64,000 bases of DNA from an uncultured Rickettsiales bacterium (GCA_964383745.1 CAYLHV010000002.1:19625-83624), one strand, 5' to 3'. Positions 20,945-59,497 are shown, numbered from the stretch's first letter. The notes: generated from the letters alone by a model not told the origin. Translations and numbers: made by a program.

Positions 20945-22057
20945 ATGGCAGAATCATCCCAAGAACATAATCTAAAATCTTTAAAATTATTTGACTTTTC
21001 TGACTTTGAGCTAGATTCATTTCCCAAAAAGGCCGATAATTTAATTGAACTCACTCTCGTTAACGGAAAGATTTCTAAAGATTTAAGTGAGAGAATTGCT
21101 GAAATCAGCTCTTTGCAACAACTGACAATCATTGACTGTAATGTTGATGAGAATTTTGTCGAGATTTTCACAAATTTTGCAAAATTAGAGAATTTAAAAA
21201 AAATGGAAGTGGTTGATTCTGAAATCACAAGCCGTGGTTTTCTTGAGATTGCAAATAAATTCCAAAATTCAAAAATCGAAAAACTTGCTTTTGCAAATAA
21301 TGTCATTAGCGATGAATCAAAATATTTTTCCGAAGCAATTGATTCTCTTAAAAAAATGAAATCTCTATCTGCAATTTCTCTTTCAAATAATGCAATTTCT
21401 GATGCAGGTGCTGCAAAAATTGCAGAATTAATTAACGAAAATCTCATCATTAAAAATGTTTTATTAGCAAAAAATGCAATTTCTAATGATGGAGCTTTCA
21501 GTCTTTTAGGTGCCATCTCGGAACATCCATCTTTTGAGAGATTGATTCTTGATGACAATTTAATCGGTGACATACCTGCATTGAGCGGTCTTTTAATGAT
21601 GAACCAGAATGAGAATTTGCATTTAAGCTTCAGTGATAATTTCCTGACAGATTTTTCTGGTAAATTCTTTTTAGAAAATTTCCAAAATGGGCATGTGAAA
21701 CCTTTGCAAGCTCTAATTCAAAAAAATAAATTTTCCCATGATCTTCAGGAAAAAATAAATAATATCATTCATCCTCATGTGATAAAAATTCAGAATTTAC
21801 TGACAGAATTCAATAATATTGAGCTGACCGTCACAGAAGATCTAAAATTAAAAATGCCAGAATTTCTAAGACATTTTAGTTTGAACTATGAAAATGTTAA
21901 TTTGCCAGATTTTAAAAATGTTGAAGCTCCAATGGAAGAAATTTGTGCAAATCAAAAAGAGATCAGGCTTTTGCAAAAACCAAGCGGCATTCTTGAGGAA
22001 ATGGCTTTTTCTGACATTTGGGGCGAAATTAATGATGTAGTTTGTGAATTTCTCTAA
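20945..22057 (+). CDS. Leucine-rich repeat protein, ribonuclease-inhibitor (RNI) type
   Basis: Repeats of about 28 residues, for example LSAISLSNNAISDAGAAKIAELI and NVLLAKNAISNDGAFSLLGAI. No signal peptide. Confidence 0.75.
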   Translation: MAESSQEHNLKSLKLFDFSDFELDSFPKKADNLIELTLVNGKISKDLSERIAEISSLQQLTIIDCNVDENFVEIFTNFAKLENLKKMEVVDSEITSRGFLEIANKFQNSKIEKLAFANNVISDESKYFSEAIDSLKKMKSLSAISLSNNAISDAGAAKIAELINENLIIKNVLLAKNAISNDGAFSLLGAISEHPSFERLILDDNLIGDIPALSGLLMMNQNENLHLSFSDNFLTDFSGKFFLENFQNGHVKPLQALIQKNKFSHDLQEKINNIIHPHVIKIQNLLTEFNNIELTVTEDLKLKMPEFLRHFSLNYENVNLPDFKNVEAPMEEICANQKEIRLLQKPSGILEEMAFSDIWGEINDVVCEFL

Positions 22058-22770
22058 ACCCCGAAGCTTTTCACAAGATTTCCGCAAATTAAATACCAGC
22101 CATCAATGATGACGAAAAATATGATCTTAAAAGGCATTGAAATCATCACTGGTGGCAACATCATCATTCCCATTGCCATTAAGATTGCGGAGATTGCAAT
22201 GTCAATTACAAGAAATGGAATGAAAATTAGGAAGCCAATTTCAAATGCTCTTTTGAGTTCACTGATCATGAAAGCCGGAACCAGTGCCTGAATTGGAACT
22301 TCTTCTGGCTTCTCAAGTTTAGGAGTTTTAGAAATTTGTAAAAATAGTTCCAGATCTTTTTCTTTAACATTTTTAAGCATGAATTCTTTAAATGGCCCTA
22401 CCACCGGAACCAGAGCTTGTTCTTCTGTGATTTTCCCTTCAATGAGCGGCACCACGCCTTCTTTATAGGATTTTTCAAAAACAGGACCCATGATGAAAAA
22501 TGTTAAAAACAGCGCAAGGCTGATTAGAACTGAGTTTGGAGGGCTTTGTTGCAGGCCAATGGCGCTTCTTAAAAAAGAAAAAACCACAATGATTCTGGTG
22601 AAGCAAGTCACCATGATTAAAATTGACGGTGCTAAACTCAAAATGGTGATGAGAAAAATCATTTGAAAAACGCGACTTGTCAAATCACCACCCAAATCAA
22701 ATGGGAGACCATCTGCTAACGCAAATTCAGGATTTAGAAATAATAAGATTAATAAAAAATATTTTCTCAT
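22054..22770 (-). CDS. fliP: Flagellar type III export gate protein FliP
   Basis: Signal-like N-terminus and four TM helices. Conserved segments include FTRIIVVFSFLRSAIG, PPNSVLISLALFLTFFIM and FKIIFFV..DGW. Confidence 0.92.
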   Translation of the reverse strand: MRKYFLLILLFLNPEFALADGLPFDLGGDLTSRVFQMIFLITILSLAPSILIMVTCFTRIIVVFSFLRSAIGLQQSPPNSVLISLALFLTFFIMGPVFEKSYKEGVVPLIEGKITEEQALVPVVGPFKEFMLKNVKEKDLELFLQISKTPKLEKPEEVPIQALVPAFMISELKRAFEIGFLIFIPFLVIDIAISAILMAMGMMMLPPVMISMPFKIIFFVIIDGWYLICGNLVKSFGV

Positions 22771-23362: not shown

Positions 23363-23632
23363 TTAACCCTTATGTTTATTTTGATAAATGAAAGATAGAA
23401 TCTCTGCGACCGATCCATAAACCTCAAATGGAATTAGCGAATCTACCTCTAAAATTGAGAGAATCTGCACTAATTCTTTATCTTCCTTGATGAGAATTTG
23501 ATTTTCTTTTGCAATTTTGAGAATCTGTTTTGCAAGCTCGCCGCGACCAGAAGCGGTGATTTTTGGTGCATCCATGATGTCTTTATCATATTTTAAAGCA
23601 ACTGCAAGCATTTCTTTTTCTAAATTTTTCAT
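23363..23632 (-). CDS. Small FlhB C-terminal-domain-like protein (EscU/YscU/HrcU family stand-alone domain)
   Basis: AVALKYD....APKITASGRGELAKQILKIAKENQILIKEDKELVQIL......IPFEVYGSVAEIL matches the FlhB cytoplasmic domain downstream of the NPTH cleavage site. There are no TM helices. Confidence 0.75.
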   Translation of the reverse strand: MKNLEKEMLAVALKYDKDIMDAPKITASGRGELAKQILKIAKENQILIKEDKELVQILSILEVDSLIPFEVYGSVAEILSFIYQNKHKG

Positions 23633-23827
23633 TAATCTGCACTTGTAAATTCTAATTCTAGTCACCATTTAAGCTTATATGCCTGGACATATATTTTAAC
23701 TTAAAGAATATGTTTGTGAAGATGATATCAACTTTTAGTCTTTTTAAAAATAGATATTTTCAAAACTTGACTAAGTTTAAGAAAAAATGTAGTCTATGAA
23801 GCAATTGTCTACCAATAAATTTAAATT

Positions 23828-25102
23828 ATGAACGGAGAAATTATCTTGAGCAAATTTTTAACACCTTCAAATAGAAAAATACTTAAATATAGTTTCTTCA
23901 GCAGCTTGCTTGAGCTTTATGAATTTGCTTTATATGGAGTGATGCTTTCAATTCTGTCTAAAAAATTCTTCCCAGGAAATGCGCAGACGCAGATTGTGCT
24001 GGCATATTTGGCTTTTAGCCTCACTTTCTTAGTGGCACCAATCTCTTCCTTCATTTGGGGATATATTGCTGATAAACGTGGCAGGGTTAAGATGATTCGA
24101 ATGACTTTGAATTTAATGGCATTCCCATCTTTCATCATTGCTTTCCTGCCAACCTATGACGAAATTGGCGTTTATGCTTGCGTGATTTTGGTCATTTGCA
24201 GAATCTTGCAAGGAATCAGCTCTAGTGGGGCTTATGGTGGAATTAAAATTTTTGCTTTTGAATCAATTGGTAATGACCATTTAGGTAAAACAGCAGGGAT
24301 CTTGAGCTGTGCCGGCGCCTTGGGCGTCTTAAGCGCGAACTTTGCTTCTTTCATTGTGACAAAGAATCCTCATATGGAAGATCTTTGGAGATATGCTTTT
24401 TTAGTTGGTTCTGTGCTGGGTGTCATTGGCTTTTTAATTAGAAAAAGGCTCATTGAATCATCAGAATTTCTGAAAGCTAAACCTCCGAAACCTGAGGAAT
24501 TAACATTCAAAGCATTAATGACGACCTATAAAAAACGAATTATTGTCATTTTCTCAGTCAGCTCCTTTCTTGGTTTATTTTCCTATTCAATGCATGCTTT
24601 CATGGTGGTGCATTTAACTAGGCTTGGATTTGAGCATAGTTTTGCCTATTTGCTTTGCATCATGGCACTGAGCTGCACGTGCATTTCTGCAATTTGCATC
24701 GGTTTCAAAATTGATTTCACAAAAAATGAAAATCATATCACAAAAGTTCTGGCATGCTTGATTTTTGTGTTTCCATTTTGCTATTCTTTATTCTTAAGTC
24801 AGGAAAAATGGCAAGCACTTGTCGCAATGGTGATTCTTGGACTGTTCTTAGGTTGCTATTCCCCAACAATCAATATCATCAACTATAAACTCTTTCCAAC
24901 TGCATTAAGAGGCAGAATGCTCCTTCTGTGCTATAGCCTTGGCGTGGCGTCTTTTGGTGGTTTTGCTCCGACGATTTTGAATCAATCAATCAAAATTCCG
25001 CAAAATCTCATTGACCCGAATCTTGTGCCAGGTTTTGTCTTGTCTTTTGCAAGTTTTGTTGTTTATTTGCTTATCAAATTTAATAGACCTAACTCTCAAT
25101 GA
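23828..25102 (+). CDS. MFS transporter (ProP-like)
   Basis: About 12 TM helices, with the MFS loop motif GYIADKRGR between TM2 and TM3. Confidence 0.85.
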   Translation: MNGEIILSKFLTPSNRKILKYSFFSSLLELYEFALYGVMLSILSKKFFPGNAQTQIVLAYLAFSLTFLVAPISSFIWGYIADKRGRVKMIRMTLNLMAFPSFIIAFLPTYDEIGVYACVILVICRILQGISSSGAYGGIKIFAFESIGNDHLGKTAGILSCAGALGVLSANFASFIVTKNPHMEDLWRYAFLVGSVLGVIGFLIRKRLIESSEFLKAKPPKPEELTFKALMTTYKKRIIVIFSVSSFLGLFSYSMHAFMVVHLTRLGFEHSFAYLLCIMALSCTCISAICIGFKIDFTKNENHITKVLACLIFVFPFCYSLFLSQEKWQALVAMVILGLFLGCYSPTINIINYKLFPTALRGRMLLLCYSLGVASFGGFAPTILNQSIKIPQNLIDPNLVPGFVLSFASFVVYLLIKFNRPNSQ

Positions 25103-28100
25103 ATTCATAGGCCTCTTCAATTGTCTTGATGATTGCGTCTTTGTTGTAGGGCTTTGTGATGTGCCCTACAACACCTAGTGAGAAAGCTTTGTTAATTTCA
25201 TCAATGTCAACCATGCCGCTTTGTAGAATGATGGGGATGTTCTTGAATTTAGGTTCTTTCTTAATCACCTCAATGAGGTCAATGCCATACATGTCAGGCA
25301 TCATCATGTCCATGAGAATTAGGTCAATTTCTTCATAATGCTCATAGAGCTTGCTAAGAGCTTCTAAAGCCCCCGCAGCTTCAATCACTCTAAGCCCGTG
25401 ACTGCTGATGACCATGTTTAATGCGTTACGGAGAATTTTCTCATCTTCAACAATTAAGGTGGTTTTCGAGGCTTTGGAAACATTGAAGTTTTTTAATGGC
25501 TCAGCTTTTATTTTCTTCTGATTTTGACTATATGGCAATGCAAAAGAAAATGTGGCTCCTTTTTCTAAATTATTCTCTGCCCAAATCACGCCTGAATGAT
25601 AGAAAATGATGTTCTGACAAATTGCAAGCCCAAGACCAGTTCCACCAGCGCCTGTTTTTGTGTTACTTCCTTGTTGAAAAGGTTCAAAAATTTTCGTGAG
25701 CTCATTTTTATCAATCCCAATTCCAGAATCAATCACTGAGAAACATAAATGCTTCGCGTTCATGGAGTTTTTATCGATTCTGAAAGTTTTATTATCAATT
25801 CTGACCAGAATTTCGCCATATTCAGAAAATTTTATGGCATTTGAAATTAAATTACGAATGACTTGCTTGATTCTTAAAACATCAAAAGGTGCAACTAAAT
25901 CTATGTCATCTTGAATTTCAAGGCGCAGAGAAATTTGTTTTTGCAAACAGAGAACTTTGGATTCTTCGATGATGTCTTCAGCAGCTTTTCTCAAATCATT
26001 TTTTTCAATTTCAAGAAGCATTTTCCCTGAATCAAATTTTGCTACTTCAAGCAAGTCTGACAAGAATGTCATAAGCCTGCTTCCACTGTCAGCAATCATG
26101 TTCACATAGGTCAATTTTTCTTCATCGCTGAAACTGCCCCATTGTCCTTGCAAAATCTCAGAAACGCTGATGATGCCTTGAATTGGCGTTCTGACTTCAT
26201 GGCTGATGTTATGGAAAATCTCTTTTTTATATTCCAACGCTTTCGCCAGCTTCCTGTCAGATTTAATATTATCATTATGAGATTTTTCTAGAGTTAAGTT
26301 GATTTTTTTATTTTGTGTGAGGGCATTTTCCAAATGAGTTGTTTTTTCTTCCACATTTTTCATTAACATTTGGTTCGCTTCTTTTAGCTGCATTTTTGTG
26401 TCTTCAAGCTCTGCATTTTTTATCAGCATTTCGCTATTTTTTTCTTCTAATAAGATTTTACTTGATTTTAATTCGGAAACGGCATTTTTGAGCAGATTAG
26501 TGATTCTTCTGAGGCGCTTTAAATCAAGTTCTCTTAAATATAGAATAAAATAGCTTAACACAGACGTACAAGCAGCTGCATAGATCACATAGTCATAGTT
26601 GTGAGTTAAAATTGTGAAATCTTCTTGTAAGAAATTTTGCACTACAAAAGCTGATGAAACTCCAATTACCATAATGGCAATGAAACTGACCCAATCAACA
26701 AGCAATGTTAAAATGAAAGTGGAAACCACTGTGTTTAAAATCCAAAAATCATCACTTGCCTTGCTGTCAATTGTTAAAAAAGTTGACAGAAATGGTAAGC
26801 AGAATAGTAAAGTAAAATACCAATAAAATGGCAGATATTTTGACGTTTTGGCTTCTTCTTCGCCTTTAGCAATTGTCCATATTACTAAACAGAAGCAAAG
26901 AGCACATGCAATTGCTCTTAAAGTGATTTCCACATGTCTAACGCCACCATTATAGGACCACATGAAATATGGGATGATGTAGATGGCCATTCCTATGAAA
27001 CCAAAAGTTAGATAATATTGTCTGCCATAATATCTGACTTTTTGATGCACAAATTCAATAATTTTAGAAAAGCTGAAAATTGAGAGAACTGCCCCAGAAG
27101 CCTTAGAAAAAAACTCCCGAAATGTTACGCCACCACCAGAATCTTCCGAATTTTTTTCTCCTTTAAAGATTCTTTGTCCACCAAATTGATATAGCACTAT
27201 GAAAAGAATGATGTCTAAAAATGTGATTGGGATGATTCCGTCAATGTGGAATTTGCTTTTCAAATAGAGAACCCATATAATGGATGAGCAGGAACCAAAA
27301 GCAACACAAATTAGGAAATTTCTTAAAGTTAGGATATAGCCCCAAATGCCAAAAATGAATGGTACTAAAAGAATTGTGACCCAAAAATAGGCTGAAAACA
27401 CCACAATCTTCAGAATGTTTTTATACATTAATGCAATGAAGAGAGTTGAACTTCCTAAAAAGAAAGTCATGACTCTGGCAATGATTAATTCTTTTTTCAC
27501 TCCCAAAGAATTTTTGAAAACTGGCTTAATCACATCATTCACAATGGCAACACCAGCAACATTTAAATGTGAATCAGCTGTTGACATGATGACAGCAACA
27601 AGGCCAGAAATGATGATTCCCCTGAGTCCCACAGGCATGATGTTATCAACCAAATAGAATAAAACACTATTCGCCTCTAGCCTGGGGTTAAGTACGTAGC
27701 CCATCATGCCAATTAGAACAATTATGACCGACAGAAACAGACCTATGAAAGCAGCGATCCGAAAACTATTAATGGCCTGTTTGGAGTTTTTTGACAGAAG
27801 AACTCTTTGCAAAATTGTTGGCGTGATATATAGAAAACAAAAAGTCATGAAGAGCATGAAATGTTCCTTAAACCCTTCCATGTCAGCAGTGAAGCTCATT
27901 TTTTCTTGCGGTAATGCATCAAAGAAATTCCTGTAACCACCCACAACTTCCAAAGTCTCAGTATAGACAATTGGAATGGCAATGATGAGAATGGCAAATT
28001 GGAAAAGATCTGTTTTAACAACAGAATTAATGCCGCCAAAGGTTGAATAGAAAATCACAATTCCATAGCCAATGACCACACCATATTCATATGGTATGTG

Positions 28101-28556
28101 TAAAAAATAGTGCATTAGGGAACCAATTGCAAAAATCTGCGCTGCAACGCTTGCAATTGAAATGGCACCCACAGAAATGCCAGAAATAATTTGCCCAACT
28201 CGACCATATAGTTGGAGGAAAATTTCACCAATTGAAATTGCTTGATTGAAATGTTGCTTAATTTTTGGGGCAATCAGCTCAGAAATCACTAAAGGTTTGA
28301 TTGAAAATCCAAATGTCACAATGATATATAAAATGCCATATGTGAAAGATTCAGTGACAGAGCCAATGATGGAATTCCCCCCGATCATTGTTGCGAAAAT
28401 TGTGGCAACCATGACAAAAGTGTGATAGTTCCGATCATGAACAGCATATTGAGAGAAATTTCTGATTTTCTTTCCAGAAAAATAACCAATGGACATTGTG
28501 AATAATAAATAAAAAATCACGATCCAAATGTCAATTGAAATTGAGCTTCCTAACAT
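25089..28556 (-). CDS. Hybrid sensor kinase: sodium/solute symporter (SSS) domain, second polytopic block, coiled coil, HisKA-HATPase and receiver
   Basis: The first ~470 aa are SSS-like (13-TM pattern, GGNSIIG and STADSHL contexts). About six further TM helices follow. The kinase carries the H-box HNISHEVRTPIQGI, N-box RNLISNAIKFS and G-boxes DSGIGI and GTGLGLAI. The receiver has ILMDMMMPDMYG and a conserved HITKP. Confidence 0.85.
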   Translation of the reverse strand: MLGSSISIDIWIVIFYLLFTMSIGYFSGKKIRNFSQYAVHDRNYHTFVMVATIFATMIGGNSIIGSVTESFTYGILYIIVTFGFSIKPLVISELIAPKIKQHFNQAISIGEIFLQLYGRVGQIISGISVGAISIASVAAQIFAIGSLMHYFLHIPYEYGVVIGYGIVIFYSTFGGINSVVKTDLFQFAILIIAIPIVYTETLEVVGGYRNFFDALPQEKMSFTADMEGFKEHFMLFMTFCFLYITPTILQRVLLSKNSKQAINSFRIAAFIGLFLSVIIVLIGMMGYVLNPRLEANSVLFYLVDNIMPVGLRGIIISGLVAVIMSTADSHLNVAGVAIVNDVIKPVFKNSLGVKKELIIARVMTFFLGSSTLFIALMYKNILKIVVFSAYFWVTILLVPFIFGIWGYILTLRNFLICVAFGSCSSIIWVLYLKSKFHIDGIIPITFLDIILFIVLYQFGGQRIFKGEKNSEDSGGGVTFREFFSKASGAVLSIFSFSKIIEFVHQKVRYYGRQYYLTFGFIGMAIYIIPYFMWSYNGGVRHVEITLRAIACALCFCLVIWTIAKGEEEAKTSKYLPFYWYFTLLFCLPFLSTFLTIDSKASDDFWILNTVVSTFILTLLVDWVSFIAIMVIGVSSAFVVQNFLQEDFTILTHNYDYVIYAAACTSVLSYFILYLRELDLKRLRRITNLLKNAVSELKSSKILLEEKNSEMLIKNAELEDTKMQLKEANQMLMKNVEEKTTHLENALTQNKKINLTLEKSHNDNIKSDRKLAKALEYKKEIFHNISHEVRTPIQGIISVSEILQGQWGSFSDEEKLTYVNMIADSGSRLMTFLSDLLEVAKFDSGKMLLEIEKNDLRKAAEDIIEESKVLCLQKQISLRLEIQDDIDLVAPFDVLRIKQVIRNLISNAIKFSEYGEILVRIDNKTFRIDKNSMNAKHLCFSVIDSGIGIDKNELTKIFEPFQQGSNTKTGAGGTGLGLAICQNIIFYHSGVIWAENNLEKGATFSFALPYSQNQKKIKAEPLKNFNVSKASKTTLIVEDEKILRNALNMVISSHGLRVIEAAGALEALSKLYEHYEEIDLILMDMMMPDMYGIDLIEVIKKEPKFKNIPIILQSGMVDIDEINKAFSLGVVGHITKPYNKDAIIKTIEEAYEFIES

Positions 28557-34915: not shown

Positions 34916-35926
34916 ATGACTCTTGAAAATGAAACACAGACAGACACAGAAGGAGACCAAGACATAGCTTCAGTCATGGAAGATAAAAATTCTGCACAAA
35001 ATCAGAATTCTAAGACTAATGTGCAAACTAATGGCATTAAAGCCATGATTGATCAGGCAATGCAGTCATATGAGAAACTACCCATGCTTGAGGTTGTTTT
35101 TGACCGTTTTGCGAGAGTTCTTTCCACTAATCTCAGAAATTTTACATCAGAAAATGTTGATATTGATATTAAAGAAATTTCTTCTTTAAGATTTGGGTCA
35201 TATATCAGCACATTACCTCAACCTTGCCTGATTTCTGTCTTTAAGGCCTTGGAATGGGGAGGATTTGGGCTTGTGATACCCGATGGAAATCTGATTTATG
35301 GTCTGATTGACGTTCTGTTTGGTGGCAGAAAAACACCAAACCCAACAAAATTCGAAGGCAGACCTTTCACAATCATTGAACAAGGGTTAGTTTCCCAACT
35401 CACAAGCTTGATTTTGGAAGATCTTGGATCAGCTTTCGATCCGCTCAGCCCTTCAACATTTGAGCTTGACCGAATTGCTTCAAACCCAAGCTTTGCTTCA
35501 ATTGCACGCCCTGGTGATTCAATCATCCTACTGAAACTACAAATTAACATTCAAGATCGTGGTGGAGGGATTGATATTTTAATTCCATATACTACACTCG
35601 AACCAATCAGAAGCTTGTTGCTGCAAGTGTTCATGGGAGAGAAATTTGGAAAAGACTCTGAATGGGAGGCCTATTTGGAAGGACAAATTTACTATACACC
35701 AACAATCCTGGAAGCTGTGTTGAATAGTAAGCTTGCAAATTTGCAAGAAATTGCTGCTTTGAAAGTTGGCAGCACAATCATCATGGATAATTCACCAGAA
35801 GATGAAATTCTCCTTCACTCTAATGGTGTCAGACTTTTCTCAGCAAAATTAGGGAAAGTTGGCAATGCAATCGCCGTTTCAATTGATGGAGTTTTTAAGA
35901 AAACAGATTTGGAGGAAAAATCATGA
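34916..35926 (+). CDS. fliM: Flagellar motor switch protein FliM
   Basis: Contains LPMLEVVFDRFARVLSTNLRNFT, GGR and a C-terminal SpoA-like domain (LKVGSTIIMD). Confidence 0.9.
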   Translation: MTLENETQTDTEGDQDIASVMEDKNSAQNQNSKTNVQTNGIKAMIDQAMQSYEKLPMLEVVFDRFARVLSTNLRNFTSENVDIDIKEISSLRFGSYISTLPQPCLISVFKALEWGGFGLVIPDGNLIYGLIDVLFGGRKTPNPTKFEGRPFTIIEQGLVSQLTSLILEDLGSAFDPLSPSTFELDRIASNPSFASIARPGDSIILLKLQINIQDRGGGIDILIPYTTLEPIRSLLLQVFMGEKFGKDSEWEAYLEGQIYYTPTILEAVLNSKLANLQEIAALKVGSTIIMDNSPEDEILLHSNGVRLFSAKLGKVGNAIAVSIDGVFKKTDLEEKS

Positions 35927-55415: not shown

Positions 55416-56810
55416 ATGGTTAAAATTATGAAAAAATATATTTCATTTACAAACGCAGACATAGAAAAATGTCTTTTAAATTCACATACATATGATGAAA
55501 CAGTTGCTAGATATTTAGTTTTAAAGTCAGTGTTGAAATTAAATGGCTTAAGTAAATTAAAATCCATGCTTGATGATGATTCAAAGACCATTAAAACCAT
55601 CAGGAAATTATGTGAAAATGACCTTTGGGAAGATTTATCAATGTTCTTAAAAAGAGACCCAGAAAAGGACGATTATGAATCACATTCAAAAACCCAAATC
55701 TTGAAGGATTTTGAGAAATTTTCCTATGCTAGTAGGGTGATTGAAAAAATCTCTGCCTCATCTCTGGCATTATTAATGCAGAAATGCAGCAAAGAAGAAT
55801 TAAAAAAATATGTTAATGAAGAGCTTGAAAAATATAAAGCAATTTCACAAAAACAAACTGCTAAGGATTTACCTAGAAATGCTCTGTTTTTAAGCATTAA
55901 TAATGGAGATCTCAAATTAATTTCCGAAGATTTTTTAATGAACTCACCAGATCTGCCACTAACTGGCGAACAAAGAGAATTTCTTACACATGCGTGGGAT
56001 CAAGCAACTTTTGATTCTGGTTGGTTTGCAATTTCTGGCTTTTCCCAATTCATTAGACCAAATTTAATGCTAGAATATAATTCCAGAACTAACATGTTAA
56101 TTGACGTTTCTGAAGGTAAAGTTACGGTAAGTAATGGATCAACCGCTGTTTTCCGAGACGAAGATGGAAACATACCTGATGATAATCCTGCAATTAATGC
56201 AGCCTTTACCGTTGACATTTCAGCATTAAAAGGTGATCATTTCACTTTTGGCTGTGCAACTGGAGATGTAGAATTTTATTTCGAACATGAACTTAAAAAT
56301 ATTCATTCTGCTTTAACTGTCACTAAATTACCTCTTCCAAGAACTCTTCCAGTTTCCATTACTGGTGGTCTGATCCCTTCTTTGCATGAGCGCATGACTT
56401 CTTGGCTTGTGGATGAACTTCTTCAAAATGGCAACATGAGCTCTAAGGTGAAGGGTGTATTAAAAGATTTCAACACACAAGAATTGCTTTATTTGAAATT
56501 AGAAAAAGCGTCAAAAGTTGATGTAATCAAAGCACATCTGTTAGACTATCTTTCTGAAGATGTGGCACATCAAGCTGCTACAAAATTATATTGCGCTTTA
56601 TATAATAGATGTTGTGATATTGATGAAGACTCATTCTCTGATGAGTATTATTTTACCTCAAAAAATCCTAGTAGTGAATCTAGTAGTGAATATCCAATAG
56701 GGGTAAGATATCCTTACCCAAGTGAATCTTTTTCAGAAAGATTCACCAATGCCTTCACCTCTTTAGGATCAAAAGTTTTAGAAAGGATCCAAGGTGGTCG
56801 AGGCAAATAA
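55416..56810 (+). CDS. Orphan hypothetical protein (464 aa)
   Basis: Long ORF with no TM helix, no signal peptide and no motif I recognise. It has an acidic, Ser-rich C-terminal region and is preceded by a 181-nt very AT-rich spacer. The start could be 55416 or 55428. Confidence 0.6.
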   Translation: MVKIMKKYISFTNADIEKCLLNSHTYDETVARYLVLKSVLKLNGLSKLKSMLDDDSKTIKTIRKLCENDLWEDLSMFLKRDPEKDDYESHSKTQILKDFEKFSYASRVIEKISASSLALLMQKCSKEELKKYVNEELEKYKAISQKQTAKDLPRNALFLSINNGDLKLISEDFLMNSPDLPLTGEQREFLTHAWDQATFDSGWFAISGFSQFIRPNLMLEYNSRTNMLIDVSEGKVTVSNGSTAVFRDEDGNIPDDNPAINAAFTVDISALKGDHFTFGCATGDVEFYFEHELKNIHSALTVTKLPLPRTLPVSITGGLIPSLHERMTSWLVDELLQNGNMSSKVKGVLKDFNTQELLYLKLEKASKVDVIKAHLLDYLSEDVAHQAATKLYCALYNRCCDIDEDSFSDEYYFTSKNPSSESSSEYPIGVRYPYPSESFSERFTNAFTSLGSKVLERIQGGRGK

Positions 56811-57506
56811 CGCAAGGCAAATTGCCGGTGCAAAAGGAAAAACCTTGCTTTGGGAAATTTTGTTCCAAAGCAAGGAGGTTCCAACGCCGAAAATTCCACA
56901 TAGAAAAAGGAAAAATGGAATTTGACTCCATTTAAGCATTAAAAAACAAAGACTAAATAATTTCACATCTCCAAATCCTAAGGAATCTTTTTTAAGAATT
57001 TTTGTGAAAATATAATTTAAGAAAATGAAAAATAATAAGGCAAAAATGGCCATTGAAAACATTTCAACCAAGGTTTTTCCATTTTCAAATCCTAAGAAAA
57101 TTGCAATTGGCAAAATTGCAACAAGCAGCGAATCACAGATGATGTAATGCTTCAAATCAATCACAGAAATTGTGATTAAAATGGCAGAAAGCATCATCAA
57201 AATGAAACTTTTTTGACCAAAGCCAAATTTGCTTTGAATTAATAGAAAAACCGTGATTGTCAGTAATTCAACAGCTAAATAGCTGATTCCTATTGATTTT
57301 TTACAATTCACACATTTGCCACGCGCAAAAATCCAAGAAAAAACTGGAATTAAATTTCCCATTTTTAAAATAAAGCCACATTTCACACAATGAGACCTTT
57401 TAAAAATGATGTCCAAACCTCTTGGCAGCCTATGGCATAACATATTGATAAAGCTGCCAATTATGCCACCTAAAATTAAAATGATGATTTTCTCAAGCAT
57501 GATCAA
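56778..57506 (-). CDS. Prepilin peptidase (A24 family, PilD/GspO-like)
   Basis: N-terminal Cys pairs CHR...CVKCG...CVNC, a polytopic body, and the two catalytic Asp contexts SVIDLKH and GFGDVKLF. Confidence 0.85.
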   Translation of the reverse strand: MIMLEKIIILILGGIIGSFINMLCHRLPRGLDIIFKRSHCVKCGFILKMGNLIPVFSWIFARGKCVNCKKSIGISYLAVELLTITVFLLIQSKFGFGQKSFILMMLSAILITISVIDLKHYIICDSLLVAILPIAIFLGFENGKTLVEMFSMAIFALLFFIFLNYIFTKILKKDSLGFGDVKLFSLCFLMLKWSQIPFFLFLCGIFGVGTSLLWNKISQSKVFPFAPAICLALFASTTLDPF

Positions 57507-57584
57507 GATTTTTTTATGGAATTACGTAAATCGCTATTATATCATATAATTCAATTGTTAGTTTAATTATATGATATCAATATC

Positions 57585-58520
57585 ATGGATTTATTGCAAA
57601 GATTTAGATCAAATAAAGCATTTTCGCTCATTGAGATGTCAATGGTTTTAATCATCATTGCCACAATTTCAGGTGGAATGATTGCAATGTCAGTCTCTCA
57701 AAGTGAAAATGCAAACAGGGAACAAACACAAAATAAATTTAAAATCATTGAGAAATCTCTTTCAACTTTCATTTCAATTAATAAACGCCTCCCTTGTCCT
57801 GCAGACCCTGCTCTTTCTGAAAATGATGCTAATTTTGGCGTTGAGAGATGCAATTGTAATGAATTTAGAGGCTCAATTTCAGGCAGCTTTCCGGCCCCAG
57901 CTGACTATTCTTGCGCTGCCGCAGATTCTTACAGTGGCGGAGATGTTCCTTTTGTCACGCTTGGCCTGCCCAAACAATTTGCCTCTGATGGCTGGGGGAA
58001 TAAAATTTTCTATTCAGTCAGCGACGCTTTCACTGGCACTAACGCAGCAAATTGTCAAATTGGCACACCTGAAACTCTGTTTGACTTTAATGAATGCAAC
58101 AAAGGGCTTCTCAAAATTCTTGATGCAAATGGCAATGTGAAAACAGACGATGCCGCAATTGTGCTGCTCAGTTTCGGTCCAAATGCGCAAGGGGCTTATT
58201 ATAAAAACATAGATAGCCGCGTTGTTCCAAATCCAACTTCCATTGAATCCGTAAATGCAGATTTGGGAGATGGAAGATTCACGGATAAGATTGTTGAAAA
58301 ATCTGATAATGAAACCATCAATTTTGATGATGTCATTCTCTATAGGACAAAGGAACAATTATTAGGAAATTTAAATATTTCAATATCAAATGGCACTTGC
58401 ACCATTGCAGAAGAAATTCTCAGTTCTGATGATTTATTTTGCGGCAATAATCCTGGTGACGCAAATTGCGCGGCTTATATGTCAAATCTGGCAAATCACA
58501 TTAAGAAACTCTGTCTGTGA
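57585..58520 (+). CDS. Large prepilin-type protein 1 (GspG-like core plus Cys-rich extension)
   Basis: Class III leader MDLLQRFRSNKA followed by FSLIEMSMVLIIIATISG. Internal blocks SDGWGNKIFY and LLSFGPNAQG. 10 Cys. Paralog of the next gene. Confidence 0.75.
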   Translation: MDLLQRFRSNKAFSLIEMSMVLIIIATISGGMIAMSVSQSENANREQTQNKFKIIEKSLSTFISINKRLPCPADPALSENDANFGVERCNCNEFRGSISGSFPAPADYSCAAADSYSGGDVPFVTLGLPKQFASDGWGNKIFYSVSDAFTGTNAANCQIGTPETLFDFNECNKGLLKILDANGNVKTDDAAIVLLSFGPNAQGAYYKNIDSRVVPNPTSIESVNADLGDGRFTDKIVEKSDNETINFDDVILYRTKEQLLGNLNISISNGTCTIAEEILSSDDLFCGNNPGDANCAAYMSNLANHIKKLCL

Positions 58521-58531
58521 GAAAGTTTAAA

Positions 58532-59497
58532 ATGATGAAAAATAAAAAAAATAACTCTGGCTTCTCCTTGGTGGAATTGTCACTTGTAATGGTGATTTCC
58601 TCGGTCATCATTGGCCATTTGCTTGGTTTTGCAACGGAAAAACAACATGACAGTAAACTGAAATCCACAAAAGATAATTTCTCAATTGTTGAAGAAGCAA
58701 TCTCAGATTTTCTGATTAAAAATGGCAGACTCCCTTGCCCATCATCTTTTACAGAAGACATATATTCCTCAAATTCTGGCATAGAAAATTTAAGTTCAGA
58801 CAAGCTTTCATGCATTGGCACTGTCACAAATCCCTATGAATCAACAACAGCAAATGATTTTCTTGCAATTGGAACCATTCCAACAAAATCTCTTGGCATT
58901 CCTGATGATTTGGCTTTAGACTCATGGGGAAGAAGAATGACTTATGTTGCTGTGAAAGCCTGCGCTCAATCTCAAACAGGAGGAAATACTAAATTTTTCA
59001 GACATGCCGACAATACTTGCGGCAATGGAAGCTCTGGCCATTTAAGAATTTTAGATCAATCTGGCGGCACCATCAGCCTAGATGCAGTTTTTGTGATTGT
59101 CAGTCATGGAAGTAATGGCCATGGCGCAATTTCTAGGCTTTCCTATGACAGAATAAAATCATCAGAAAAATTAAGTGAAGATGAAATCAAAAATGCTCAA
59201 TTAGATGCAAATGGCCAAATTGTCAGTAATGATGGTGTTTTTGTGCAAAGAAGCATGAATCTTAATAAGAGCGATGGTTATTATGATGATTTAATTTCCT
59301 ATCAAACAAGAAATCAAATCATACAAAATTCAAATGGCCTTCTCAAAAATGGATCATATTTAAGTTATTTATGCAAAATCTCAGACAAAATCCCAGATCT
59401 GGCTGCAGCTCAGCAAATTTGTGGACCAAATGCTAATGTGGATTGCGCACAAAATCTGACTTCTCTTGCAGGAGAAATAGGAAGAATCTGCTATTAA
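58532..59497 (+). CDS. Large prepilin-type protein 2 (paralog of 57585-58520)
   Basis: Leader MMKNKKNNSG followed by FSLVELSLVMVISSVIIG. Internal blocks LDSWGRRMTY and IVSHGSNGHG. 8 Cys. A GTG at 58517 is an alternative start. Confidence 0.75.
   Translation: MMKNKKNNSGFSLVELSLVMVISSVIIGHLLGFATEKQHDSKLKSTKDNFSIVEEAISDFLIKNGRLPCPSSFTEDIYSSNSGIENLSSDKLSCIGTVTNPYESTTANDFLAIGTIPTKSLGIPDDLALDSWGRRMTYVAVKACAQSQTGGNTKFFRHADNTCGNGSSGHLRILDQSGGTISLDAVFVIVSHGSNGHGAISRLSYDRIKSSEKLSEDEIKNAQLDANGQIVSNDGVFVQRSMNLNKSDGYYDDLISYQTRNQIIQNSNGLLKNGSYLSYLCKISDKIPDLAAAQQICGPNANVDCAQNLTSLAGEIGRICY

Follow-up and report, generated by a model that had tools for sequence, protein, structure and literature searches.

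The stretch of DNA analysed here (the window) is 64,000 nucleotides long and comes from an uncultured Rickettsiales bacterium (GCA_964383745.1 CAYLHV010000002.1:19625-83624). Within positions 56778–59497 it carries a prepilin peptidase gene and, divergent from it, two tandem genes for large, cysteine-rich pilin-like proteins, here called A and B. We put the probability at roughly 60% that A, B and the peptidase are the subunits and the processing enzyme of a dispersed, T4P/MSH-like adhesive fibre (T4P, type IV pilus; MSH, mannose-sensitive haemagglutinin) of Rickettsiales- or Holosporales-like Alphaproteobacteria. A dispersed type IV filament had been offered as one alternative in an earlier note on this stretch, and it is favoured by the predicted pilin architecture, by the conserved arrangement of the genes, by the presence of a secretin gene in two relatives and by PilB and PilC in a further genome, Rickettsiales bacterium UBA2645. 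The same note had put the locus forward as its best candidate for an undescribed module; it is so only in part, as T4P gene sets have been catalogued in papers on the Rickettsiales and the Holosporales. The pilus system itself is already known from these lineages and no new kind of machine is revealed. What is new is the subunit family. It is very large and has no domain model, its members are about double the length of GspG and probably derive from it, and they are cysteine-rich and modular, with no solved structural relative.

The prepilin peptidase and proteins A and B

The peptidase gene occupies positions 56778–57506 on the minus strand. Both domains of a PilD/GspO-type (A24A) prepilin peptidase score above the Pfam cut-offs in its product: A24_N_bact with 93.1 bits (E = 1.1e-26; cut-off 23) and Peptidase_A24 with 50.2 bits (E = 4e-13; cut-off 26.5). 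In an alignment with Escherichia coli GspO and five relatives, D117, D125, D180 and K182 are invariant, and the second catalytic aspartate lies in a GxGDxK-type motif (GFGDVK, D180). The protein also carries a CxxC...CxxC motif, and no NCBIfam equivalog matched it. It is 32–36% identical to the peptidases encoded next to the pilin arrays of five related loci (L001, L006, L008, L009 and L020). Judged by its sequence, the gene encodes an intact PilD/GspO-type prepilin peptidase (A24A), which is probably bifunctional, acting as an N-methyltransferase as well. The open reading frame (ORF) gives 242 residues from a TTG codon and 240 from an in-frame ATG at 57500, the latter being the likely start.

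Protein A (57585–58520, plus strand; 311 residues, 10 cysteines) and protein B (58532–59497, plus strand; 321 residues from its ATG, 8 cysteines) each open with a class III signal, in which a short basic leader with Gly or Ala as its last residue is followed by Phe, Tyr or Met at +1, Glu at +5 and about 20 hydrophobic residues. In A, the 12-residue leader MDLLQRFRSNKA, ending RSNKA, is followed by FSLIEMSMVLIIIA; the predicted cut falls between A12 and F13, and the mature protein is predicted from nucleotide 57621. In B, the 10-residue leader MMKNKKNNSG is followed by FSLVELSLVMVISS, with the predicted cut between G10 and F11. The mature parts begin FSLIEM in A and FSLVEL in B, both with a glutamate at +5 (Glu5). 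Both proteins match N_methyl PF07963/TIGR02532 (for B, N_methyl at 23.3 bits and E = 4e-05, above the cut-off), and they are the only products of ORFs in the 64-kb window to have a class III signal.

The two proteins are 28.9% identical over 332 columns (E = 6.7e-39), and the similarity persists when the N-terminal helix is removed (E = 7e-25). Although they have diverged by about 70% from every relative, both keep each invariant residue of the family described below (in A: L69, P70, C71, P72, G85, G119, P122, L126, D135, Y143, S196, G198, D248 and D249) and an even number of cysteines. The best reciprocal matches of A are the first genes of the pairs at L001 and L006, and those of B are the second genes there; by this comparison, distant relatives have kept the A-type and B-type identities as well as the order of the two. 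The arrangement had been described in the earlier note, and its account stands: ORF calling reproduced the positions of the three ORFs, the A24 peptidase lies upstream on the opposite strand, the class III signals and the paralogy are confirmed by the matches given above, and the cysteine counts and sizes were exact.

Only 11 nt separate the stop codon of A from the ATG of B. An alternative GTG start at 58517 would give a B of 326 residues overlapping A by 4 nt, although the public gene call takes the ATG. Because of this spacing or overlap, A and B probably share one transcript. The divergent intergenic region between the peptidase gene and A (57507–57584) is 78 bp long and AT-rich, and both promoters presumably lie inside it. 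It holds 13 sigma-70-like matches against 10.4 expected from shuffled sequences and therefore no promoter was assigned; scans for promoters and terminators at the locus gave matches at background level only. On the other side of the peptidase gene, an orphan ORF of 464 residues (55416–56810, plus strand) overlaps the 3′ end of the peptidase gene by 33 nt with its own 3′ end. Its product has no Pfam or NCBIfam match and forms a singleton cluster in a collection of 15 billion proteins.

A very large family with modular members

A word-indexed search returned only 19 relatives. An exhaustive HMMER profile search, counted among representatives of 50%-identity clusters, returned 36,944 proteins at E ≤ 1e-3, 9,390 at 1e-10 and 4,351 at 1e-30. 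Most of the matches are 290–350 residues long and aligned end to end. No Pfam or NCBIfam model matched the globular part of the family; curated profiles and Protein Data Bank (PDB) sequences see only the N-terminal ∼65 residues. Nearly all of the representatives that we sampled are unnamed metagenomic singletons, and the only names found were ‘pseudopilin PulG’, ‘type II secretion system protein’ and ‘hypothetical protein’. Since most of the thousands of representatives fall within the same range of lengths, about 320 residues is the normal size in a very large unmodelled family rather than a peculiarity of A and B. The view that the pair is special in being ‘double-sized’ is thus not borne out, the 4,351 representatives at the strictest threshold being typically of this size.

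The core motifs comprise the signal, N(K/R)RLPCPAD 57 residues past the cleavage site, G.(V/I)P...LG, DGWG...(T/F)Y, (V/L)ISHG.NG.GA, E.EN and FDD(I/V), and most members have in addition four conserved cysteines in the C-terminal tail. The 139 members from loci L001–L067 and the window have a median length of 338 residues, with cysteine counts that are mostly 6, 8 or 10. Their signal follows a strict pattern: Glu5 occurs in 131 of 131, the residue at +1 is Phe or Tyr, and LPCP lies at its fixed distance of 57 residues. At position −1 of the predicted cleavage site, 109 of the 131 have Ala as against the canonical Gly (A has Ala and B has Gly), which may reflect a substrate preference of the peptidase lineage.

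The long members are modular. Among eight that were tested, five have a C-terminal Pfam Gly_rich_2 domain (PF21722), and members of 478–805 residues with C-terminal Gly_rich_2 or C1q occur at loci L019, L024, L037, L040 and L052 and as protein P0012, the C-terminal domain of which is C1q (PF00386). On the sequence evidence, the subunits belong to one very large family whose members have repeatedly gained binding modules at the C-terminus. Modular type IV pilins, in which a functional domain is grafted onto a pilin module, have been reviewed by Berry and Pelicic 2015 (PMC4471445). The long family members resemble these in combining a pilin scaffold with a C-terminal Gly_rich_2, C1q or beta-propeller, and A and B carry a small cysteine-rich helical module in the same C-terminal position. 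They differ in that the scaffold here has about 250 residues, the globular part has no match to a solved structure and the C-terminal module of A and B matches no known domain.

Two further loci have pilins with additional modules. At L073 (10001–12507), a short member of 259 residues is followed directly by a member of 573 residues, the C-terminal half of which matches a beta-propeller; this pilin–propeller fusion recalls tip adhesins of the PilY1 type. L003 (17119–18006) encodes a separate pilin that carries a Laminin_G_3 module.

Predicted structures of A and B

In the AlphaFold models, both A and B have a pilin architecture, with an N-terminal helix of about 52 residues and then a beta-sheet. 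The model of B, built from 122 sequences, has a predicted local distance difference test (pLDDT) score of 90.6 and a predicted template modelling (pTM) score of 0.87. It shows a 52-residue helix (13–64), strands at 111–115, 137–141, 171–174, 180–191 and 254–259, and a C-terminal helical module (260–318) that bears the four conserved cysteines. The model of A, built from 16 sequences, has a pLDDT of 72 and comprises a helix (15–66), a beta-sheet and C-terminal helices. The C-terminal module of about 60 residues with its four cysteines probably forms two disulfides. Predicted disulfide pairs comprise C69–C94 and C144–C163 in addition to the four C-terminal cysteines of B.

Searching the PDB with Foldseek gave no match at E ≤ 0.001 for either model. 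The best matches for B were Neisseria PilE 1ay2 (E = 0.65; TM-score 0.20/0.38) and 2hi2, over 58 columns that correspond to the helix; for A, GspG 3g20 and PulG 1t92 appeared only at chance level (E = 4–5). Neither Pfam nor Foldseek matched a known domain to the C-terminal module of the window proteins. Structure prediction, which had been proposed as a check on the pilin assignment, supports it in part: the helix and the beta-sheet are predicted, whereas Foldseek supplied neither a fold match nor an identity for the extra domain.

Relationship to GspG

GspG is the major pseudopilin of the type II secretion system (T2SS), and the sequence blocks that had been taken as its hallmark in A and B are real, conserved motifs of the family. 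Equivalence with GspG, however, has no direct statistical support and is reached only through a short family member, P0009. We rejected direct membership of GspG for A and B, since Pfam, NCBIfam and PDB hmmsearch comparisons match the N-terminal helix only and helix-trimmed HHalign finds no globular match. Against TIGR01710, A scores 20.5 bits and B 18.6 bits (cut-off 88.85), in both cases over residues 12–74 only, and neither protein matches PF08334. In full-length HHalign comparisons, only the first 67 residues match E. coli GspG at a probability of 96% and the T4P pilin PpdD at 92%. With the helix trimmed, the family profile matches E. coli GspG at a probability of 0.2% (E = 0.3), the best local match being 11 columns in which ‘ISHGxN’ is aligned with ‘LLSAGPDG’ of GspG.

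P0009 (248 residues) has the same motifs as the family and matches A at E = 2e-17. It also matches TIGR01710 at E = 4e-13 over residues 12–124, covering 104 of the 134 profile positions, scores 20.7 bits against Pfam T2SSG (cut-off 21), and can be aligned with GspG of E. coli (E = 2e-5), LxNxxxP, DxWGNxY and a further DD(I/L)xxW segment being collinear in the two. Because P0009 bridges the family to GspG, the most fitting view of the family is that of a GspG-type core that has gained insertions and a C-terminal extension. P0009 is encoded in an operon (L070, 2–6715) after a GspE-like ATPase, a GspF-like platform protein and four unknown genes (495, 198, 118 and 411 residues). For the ATPase and the platform protein, the highest-scoring models are those of GspE and GspF, and the operon probably encodes a non-canonical T2SS/T4P-like system.

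What A and B share with GspG/PulG (TIGR01710, PF08334) is the class III signal with Phe1 and Glu5, the long N-terminal helix and, collinearly, an (N)xxxP helix end, DxWGxxY, an SxGxxG strand and DD(I/V)xx(W/Y), this collinear likeness being significant only for P0009. The differences are considerable. GspG proteins of about 140–150 residues are encoded in a gspC–O operon, whereas A and B, with 311 and 321 residues against 145, have no Gsp operon, three insertions and a C-terminal four-cysteine helical module of about 60 residues. GspG-family proteins are stabilised by Ca2+ and not by disulfides; A and B have 8–10 cysteines. The secretin of the relatives is MshL-like and not GspD-like.

Genomic context in the window and in relatives

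The absence of assembly machinery from the 64 kb, reported in the earlier note, was reproduced. A tblastn search of the window with the secretins of relatives and their two neighbouring genes found nothing. When window ORFs of at least 70 residues were compared with E. coli GspC–O, HofB and HofC by phmmer, the peptidase was the only match; in a positive control, machinery genes were detected at E = 5e-94 and 5e-47. Together with this screen, Pfam searches of large ORFs (30–53 kb) and visual inspection (0–30 kb) revealed no GspE/PilB ATPase or GspF/PilC platform gene. By Pfam searches of large ORFs, the rest of the window consists of housekeeping and flagellar genes.

At the locus of the Rickettsiales endosymbiont of Stachyamoeba lipophora (L001), the order is secretin (minus), peptidase (minus), A-type (plus) and B-type (plus). 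At L006, from a metagenomic relative, A, B, the peptidase, the secretin and two genes, u255 and u227, lie on a single strand, and at L008, L009 and L020 the peptidase gene is divergent from three pilin genes. The combination of a peptidase with paralogous pilins, the conservation of which it had been suggested to check, is maintained in these relatives. The secretins of L001 and L006 score 181–193 bits against the MshL model TIGR02519 (cut-off 250.2), compared with 88–94 bits for GspD and 72–79 bits for PilQ. Directly past the secretin gene are two conserved genes (L006, 13513–14938; L001, 4966–6442), the products of which have about 255 and about 230–243 residues and an N-terminal hydrophobic segment. 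They have no Pfam or NCBIfam match; as candidate functions, an alignment-complex or a pilotin-like component specific to the lineage may be considered.

Species-representative genomes, scanned with an alignment of 7 closer sequences, gave 60 loci, nearly all from metagenome-assembled genomes (MAGs) labelled Rickettsiales or unclassified alphaproteobacterial, plus the Holosporaceae bacterium ‘Namur’. Gene context was counted over 64 non-redundant related loci (909 kb). The family arrays have one gene (17 loci), two (23), three (21) or four (3), and the gaps between the genes have a median of 4 bp. A peptidase gene is adjacent at 6 loci and a secretin gene at 2, with an ATPase or platform gene at none; nor are Gsp genes, including GspC, L, M and GspH–K, found beside the pilins. 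Beyond the peptidase, the window flanks have no synteny with any of these loci. Judged from these neighbourhoods, dispersal from the motor genes is the rule for the family. With an ATPase or platform neighbour at 0 of 64 loci, the lack of such genes near A and B is therefore not evidence of a stand-alone module. Neither of the outcomes that the earlier note had named as counting against its proposal was seen: A and B belong to none of the described minor-pilin families, a complete operon was found in none of the relatives, and a pilin-like N-terminal helix with a beta-sheet is predicted.

Several arrays have features of their own. L003 (6739–11143; on the same contig as L011) has four tandem paralogues of 342–382 residues, with no peptidase or secretin gene within 10 kb. 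Two separate family loci are present in some MAGs (L040/L059, L061/L063, L024/L062 and L032/L056). At L005 (913–9464), and also at L030 and L031, the pilin pair adjoins a sugar-biosynthesis cluster of NeuB, an aminotransferase, an epimerase and an acetyltransferase, which suggests possible pilin glycosylation in that lineage.

Comparison with known pilus systems

Supplementary Data 4 of Schoen et al. 2022 (PMC9352585) lists for UBA2645, which carries the family loci L061 and L063, two T4P_pilA, one each of PilB, PilC and PilD, and the K12282 mshL secretin. In the same table, basal Rickettsiales, Jidaibacter, Deianiraea and others have this gene set too, pilin families are expanded to as many as 57 copies, and most of the crown Rickettsiales retaining PilB, PilC and a secretin lack PilM/N/O/P/T. 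For the Rickettsiales, Schoen et al. (PMC9352585) and Castelli et al. 2024 (PMC10847448) infer that T4P were ancestral, with repeated losses, and suggest host attachment as their function; most Holosporales are reported by Dittmer et al. 2023 (PMC9992710) to have ‘incomplete type IV pili’. The family shares with this Rickettsiales T4P set both the lineages and the components, namely PilD, a secretin of the mshL type, pilins in multiple copies, and PilB and PilC as single genes elsewhere, and UBA2645 is a direct link between the two.

The Rickettsiales and Holosporales catalogues, in the parts drawn on here, record presence or absence by generic TXSScan or KEGG profiles. Pilin size, the cysteine-rich C-terminal module and the probably GspG-derived core are not described in these passages and tables, and neither are the conservation of the A and B paralogues, the tandem arrays and the modular fusions. 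The window organism lies outside the genomes of these catalogues and is distant from sequenced relatives, its polynucleotide phosphorylase (PNPase) being at most 64% identical to those of scattered Alphaproteobacteria. Of the pilus types, that of the MSHA type is similar in that the secretins of L001 and L006 score best against MshL and that K12282 mshL is entered in the table of Schoen et al. (PMC9352585). It differs in that the relatives' secretins stay below the MshL cut-off, no mshI–Q operon is present and the window has no secretin. Neither A nor B matches the NCBIfam MshA–D models. We therefore do not assign the genes to an MSHA-type system proper, for which MshL above its cut-off and an msh operon would be expected.

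T4P have been proposed for host attachment of early-branching or extracellular Rickettsiales and have been used in reconstructing how an obligate association with hosts evolved, and in the parts of the earlier studies drawn on here they are scored as present or absent only. Definition of the family would improve the annotation of members now called ‘PulG’, ‘type II secretion system protein’ or ‘hypothetical’ and would account for the scoring of such systems as ‘incomplete’. It would also supply concrete candidates for host-adhesion work in cultivable symbionts.

A probable dispersed adhesive fibre and its alternatives

If A and B are subunits of a type IV fibre, the peptidase would cleave after Ala12 of A and Gly10 of B and N-methylate the new Phe1. 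A PilB-type ATPase and a PilC-type platform, encoded elsewhere in the genome, would then extract the mature subunits from the inner membrane; these would polymerise by their hydrophobic helices, with Glu5 paired with the N-terminus of the neighbouring subunit. The fibre would exit through an MshL-like secretin with the C-terminal four-cysteine helical module facing outward, and A and B would enter the same fibre as different subunits, for instance one as the major and the other as a tip or initiating subunit. Since C1q, glycine-rich or beta-propeller modules stand at this C-terminal position elsewhere in the family, the most likely role of the fibre is adhesion to host or partner cells.

Several observations weigh against such a fibre. 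The ATPase, the platform and the secretin are all missing from the 64 kb, and the orphan 464-residue ORF stands at the position held by the secretin in the closest relatives. The globular domain has no significant likeness to solved pilins even in the model with a pLDDT of 90.6. Most Holosporales are described as having ‘incomplete type IV pili’ in the passage of Dittmer et al. (PMC9992710), and the system could be incomplete in the window organism too. The genes might then be left over from a system that has lost its secretin, and possibly its ATPase and platform too, in this genome, and be decaying or repurposed for non-polymerising membrane-anchored or periplasmic proteins. That the secretin of L001 and L006 and its two neighbours are replaced at the window locus by an ORF without homologues speaks for this, as do the incomplete Holosporales pili and the repeated loss of T4P in the Rickettsiales (PMC9352585 and PMC10847448, in the passages concerned). 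We nevertheless consider it rather unlikely: the three ORFs are intact, the peptidase has kept its catalytic aspartates, A and B have kept all invariant family residues and even cysteine counts at about 70% divergence, and loci without a secretin as neighbour are the usual case (62 of 64).

A different machine is suggested by the core of the family, which is related to GspG through P0009, and by the operon of P0009, where the ATPase and platform score best against GspE and GspF. A and B could form a periplasmic T2SS-like pseudopilus, a piston driving folded proteins (effectors or hydrolases) through an MshL-like secretin, and the absence of the retraction ATPase PilT and of PilM/N/O/P from most crown Rickettsiales with PilB, PilC and a secretin (table in PMC9352585) would be in keeping with it. 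This is improbable in our estimate, as no GspC, L, M or GspH–K is encoded beside the pilins in the 64 loci, the secretin of the relatives is MshL-like rather than GspD-like, and major pseudopilins have about 145 residues and no cysteines, whereas A and B have about 320 residues and are cysteine-rich. A variable C-terminus that is often fused to C1q, Gly_rich_2 or a beta-propeller, in arrays that expand in tandem, is as expected of surface adhesins; because of these grafts, the conserved C-terminal cysteines and the tandem expansion, surface adhesive subunits are favoured and a periplasmic pseudopilus fits less well. The missing sequence or fold match between the globular domain and solved pilins might also mean that the pilin likeness is superficial, A and B being ordinary secreted or membrane proteins next to a peptidase by coincidence. 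We regard that explanation as effectively refuted by the signal, the helix and the recurrent adjacencies. The class III motif is near-perfect throughout the family with Glu5 invariant, the N-terminal 67 residues give the high-probability matches to GspG (96%) and PpdD (92%), the predicted 52-residue helix is the signature of pilins, and adjacency to a peptidase recurs in six independent genomes and to a secretin in two.

A more specific form of the adhesive-fibre reading can be put forward tentatively, as a possibility for which the odds are clearly against. The genes would belong to a distinct subclass of type IV filaments, found mainly in Rickettsiales- and Holosporales-like bacteria and made up of PilB, PilC and PilD, together with an MshL-like secretin and a pair of membrane proteins specific to the lineage, with no PilMNOP or PilT. 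Its subunit would have an unsolved pilin fold consisting of a GspG core, three insertions and a disulfide-locked helical cap, and A and B together would form a heteropolymeric, non-retractile adhesive fibre that docks onto eukaryotic hosts.

The organism and other genes of the window

The GC content of the window is about 35%, and the organism is a deep-branching alphaproteobacterium without a close sequenced relative. Among the housekeeping genes are those for FliP (22054–22770, minus strand), an ORF resembling the C-terminal part of FlhB (23363–23668, minus strand) and FliM (34916–35926, plus strand), and the organism is therefore probably flagellated. It is probably also host-associated. 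Leucine-rich-repeat and ankyrin-repeat proteins are typical of host-associated bacteria; as read from translations, the window encodes a leucine-rich-repeat-like protein (20945–22057, plus strand) and an ankyrin-repeat protein (62497–63588, plus strand). A further translation (25089–28556, minus strand) reads as a 1,155-residue protein in which a solute symporter-like membrane domain is fused to a histidine kinase and a receiver.

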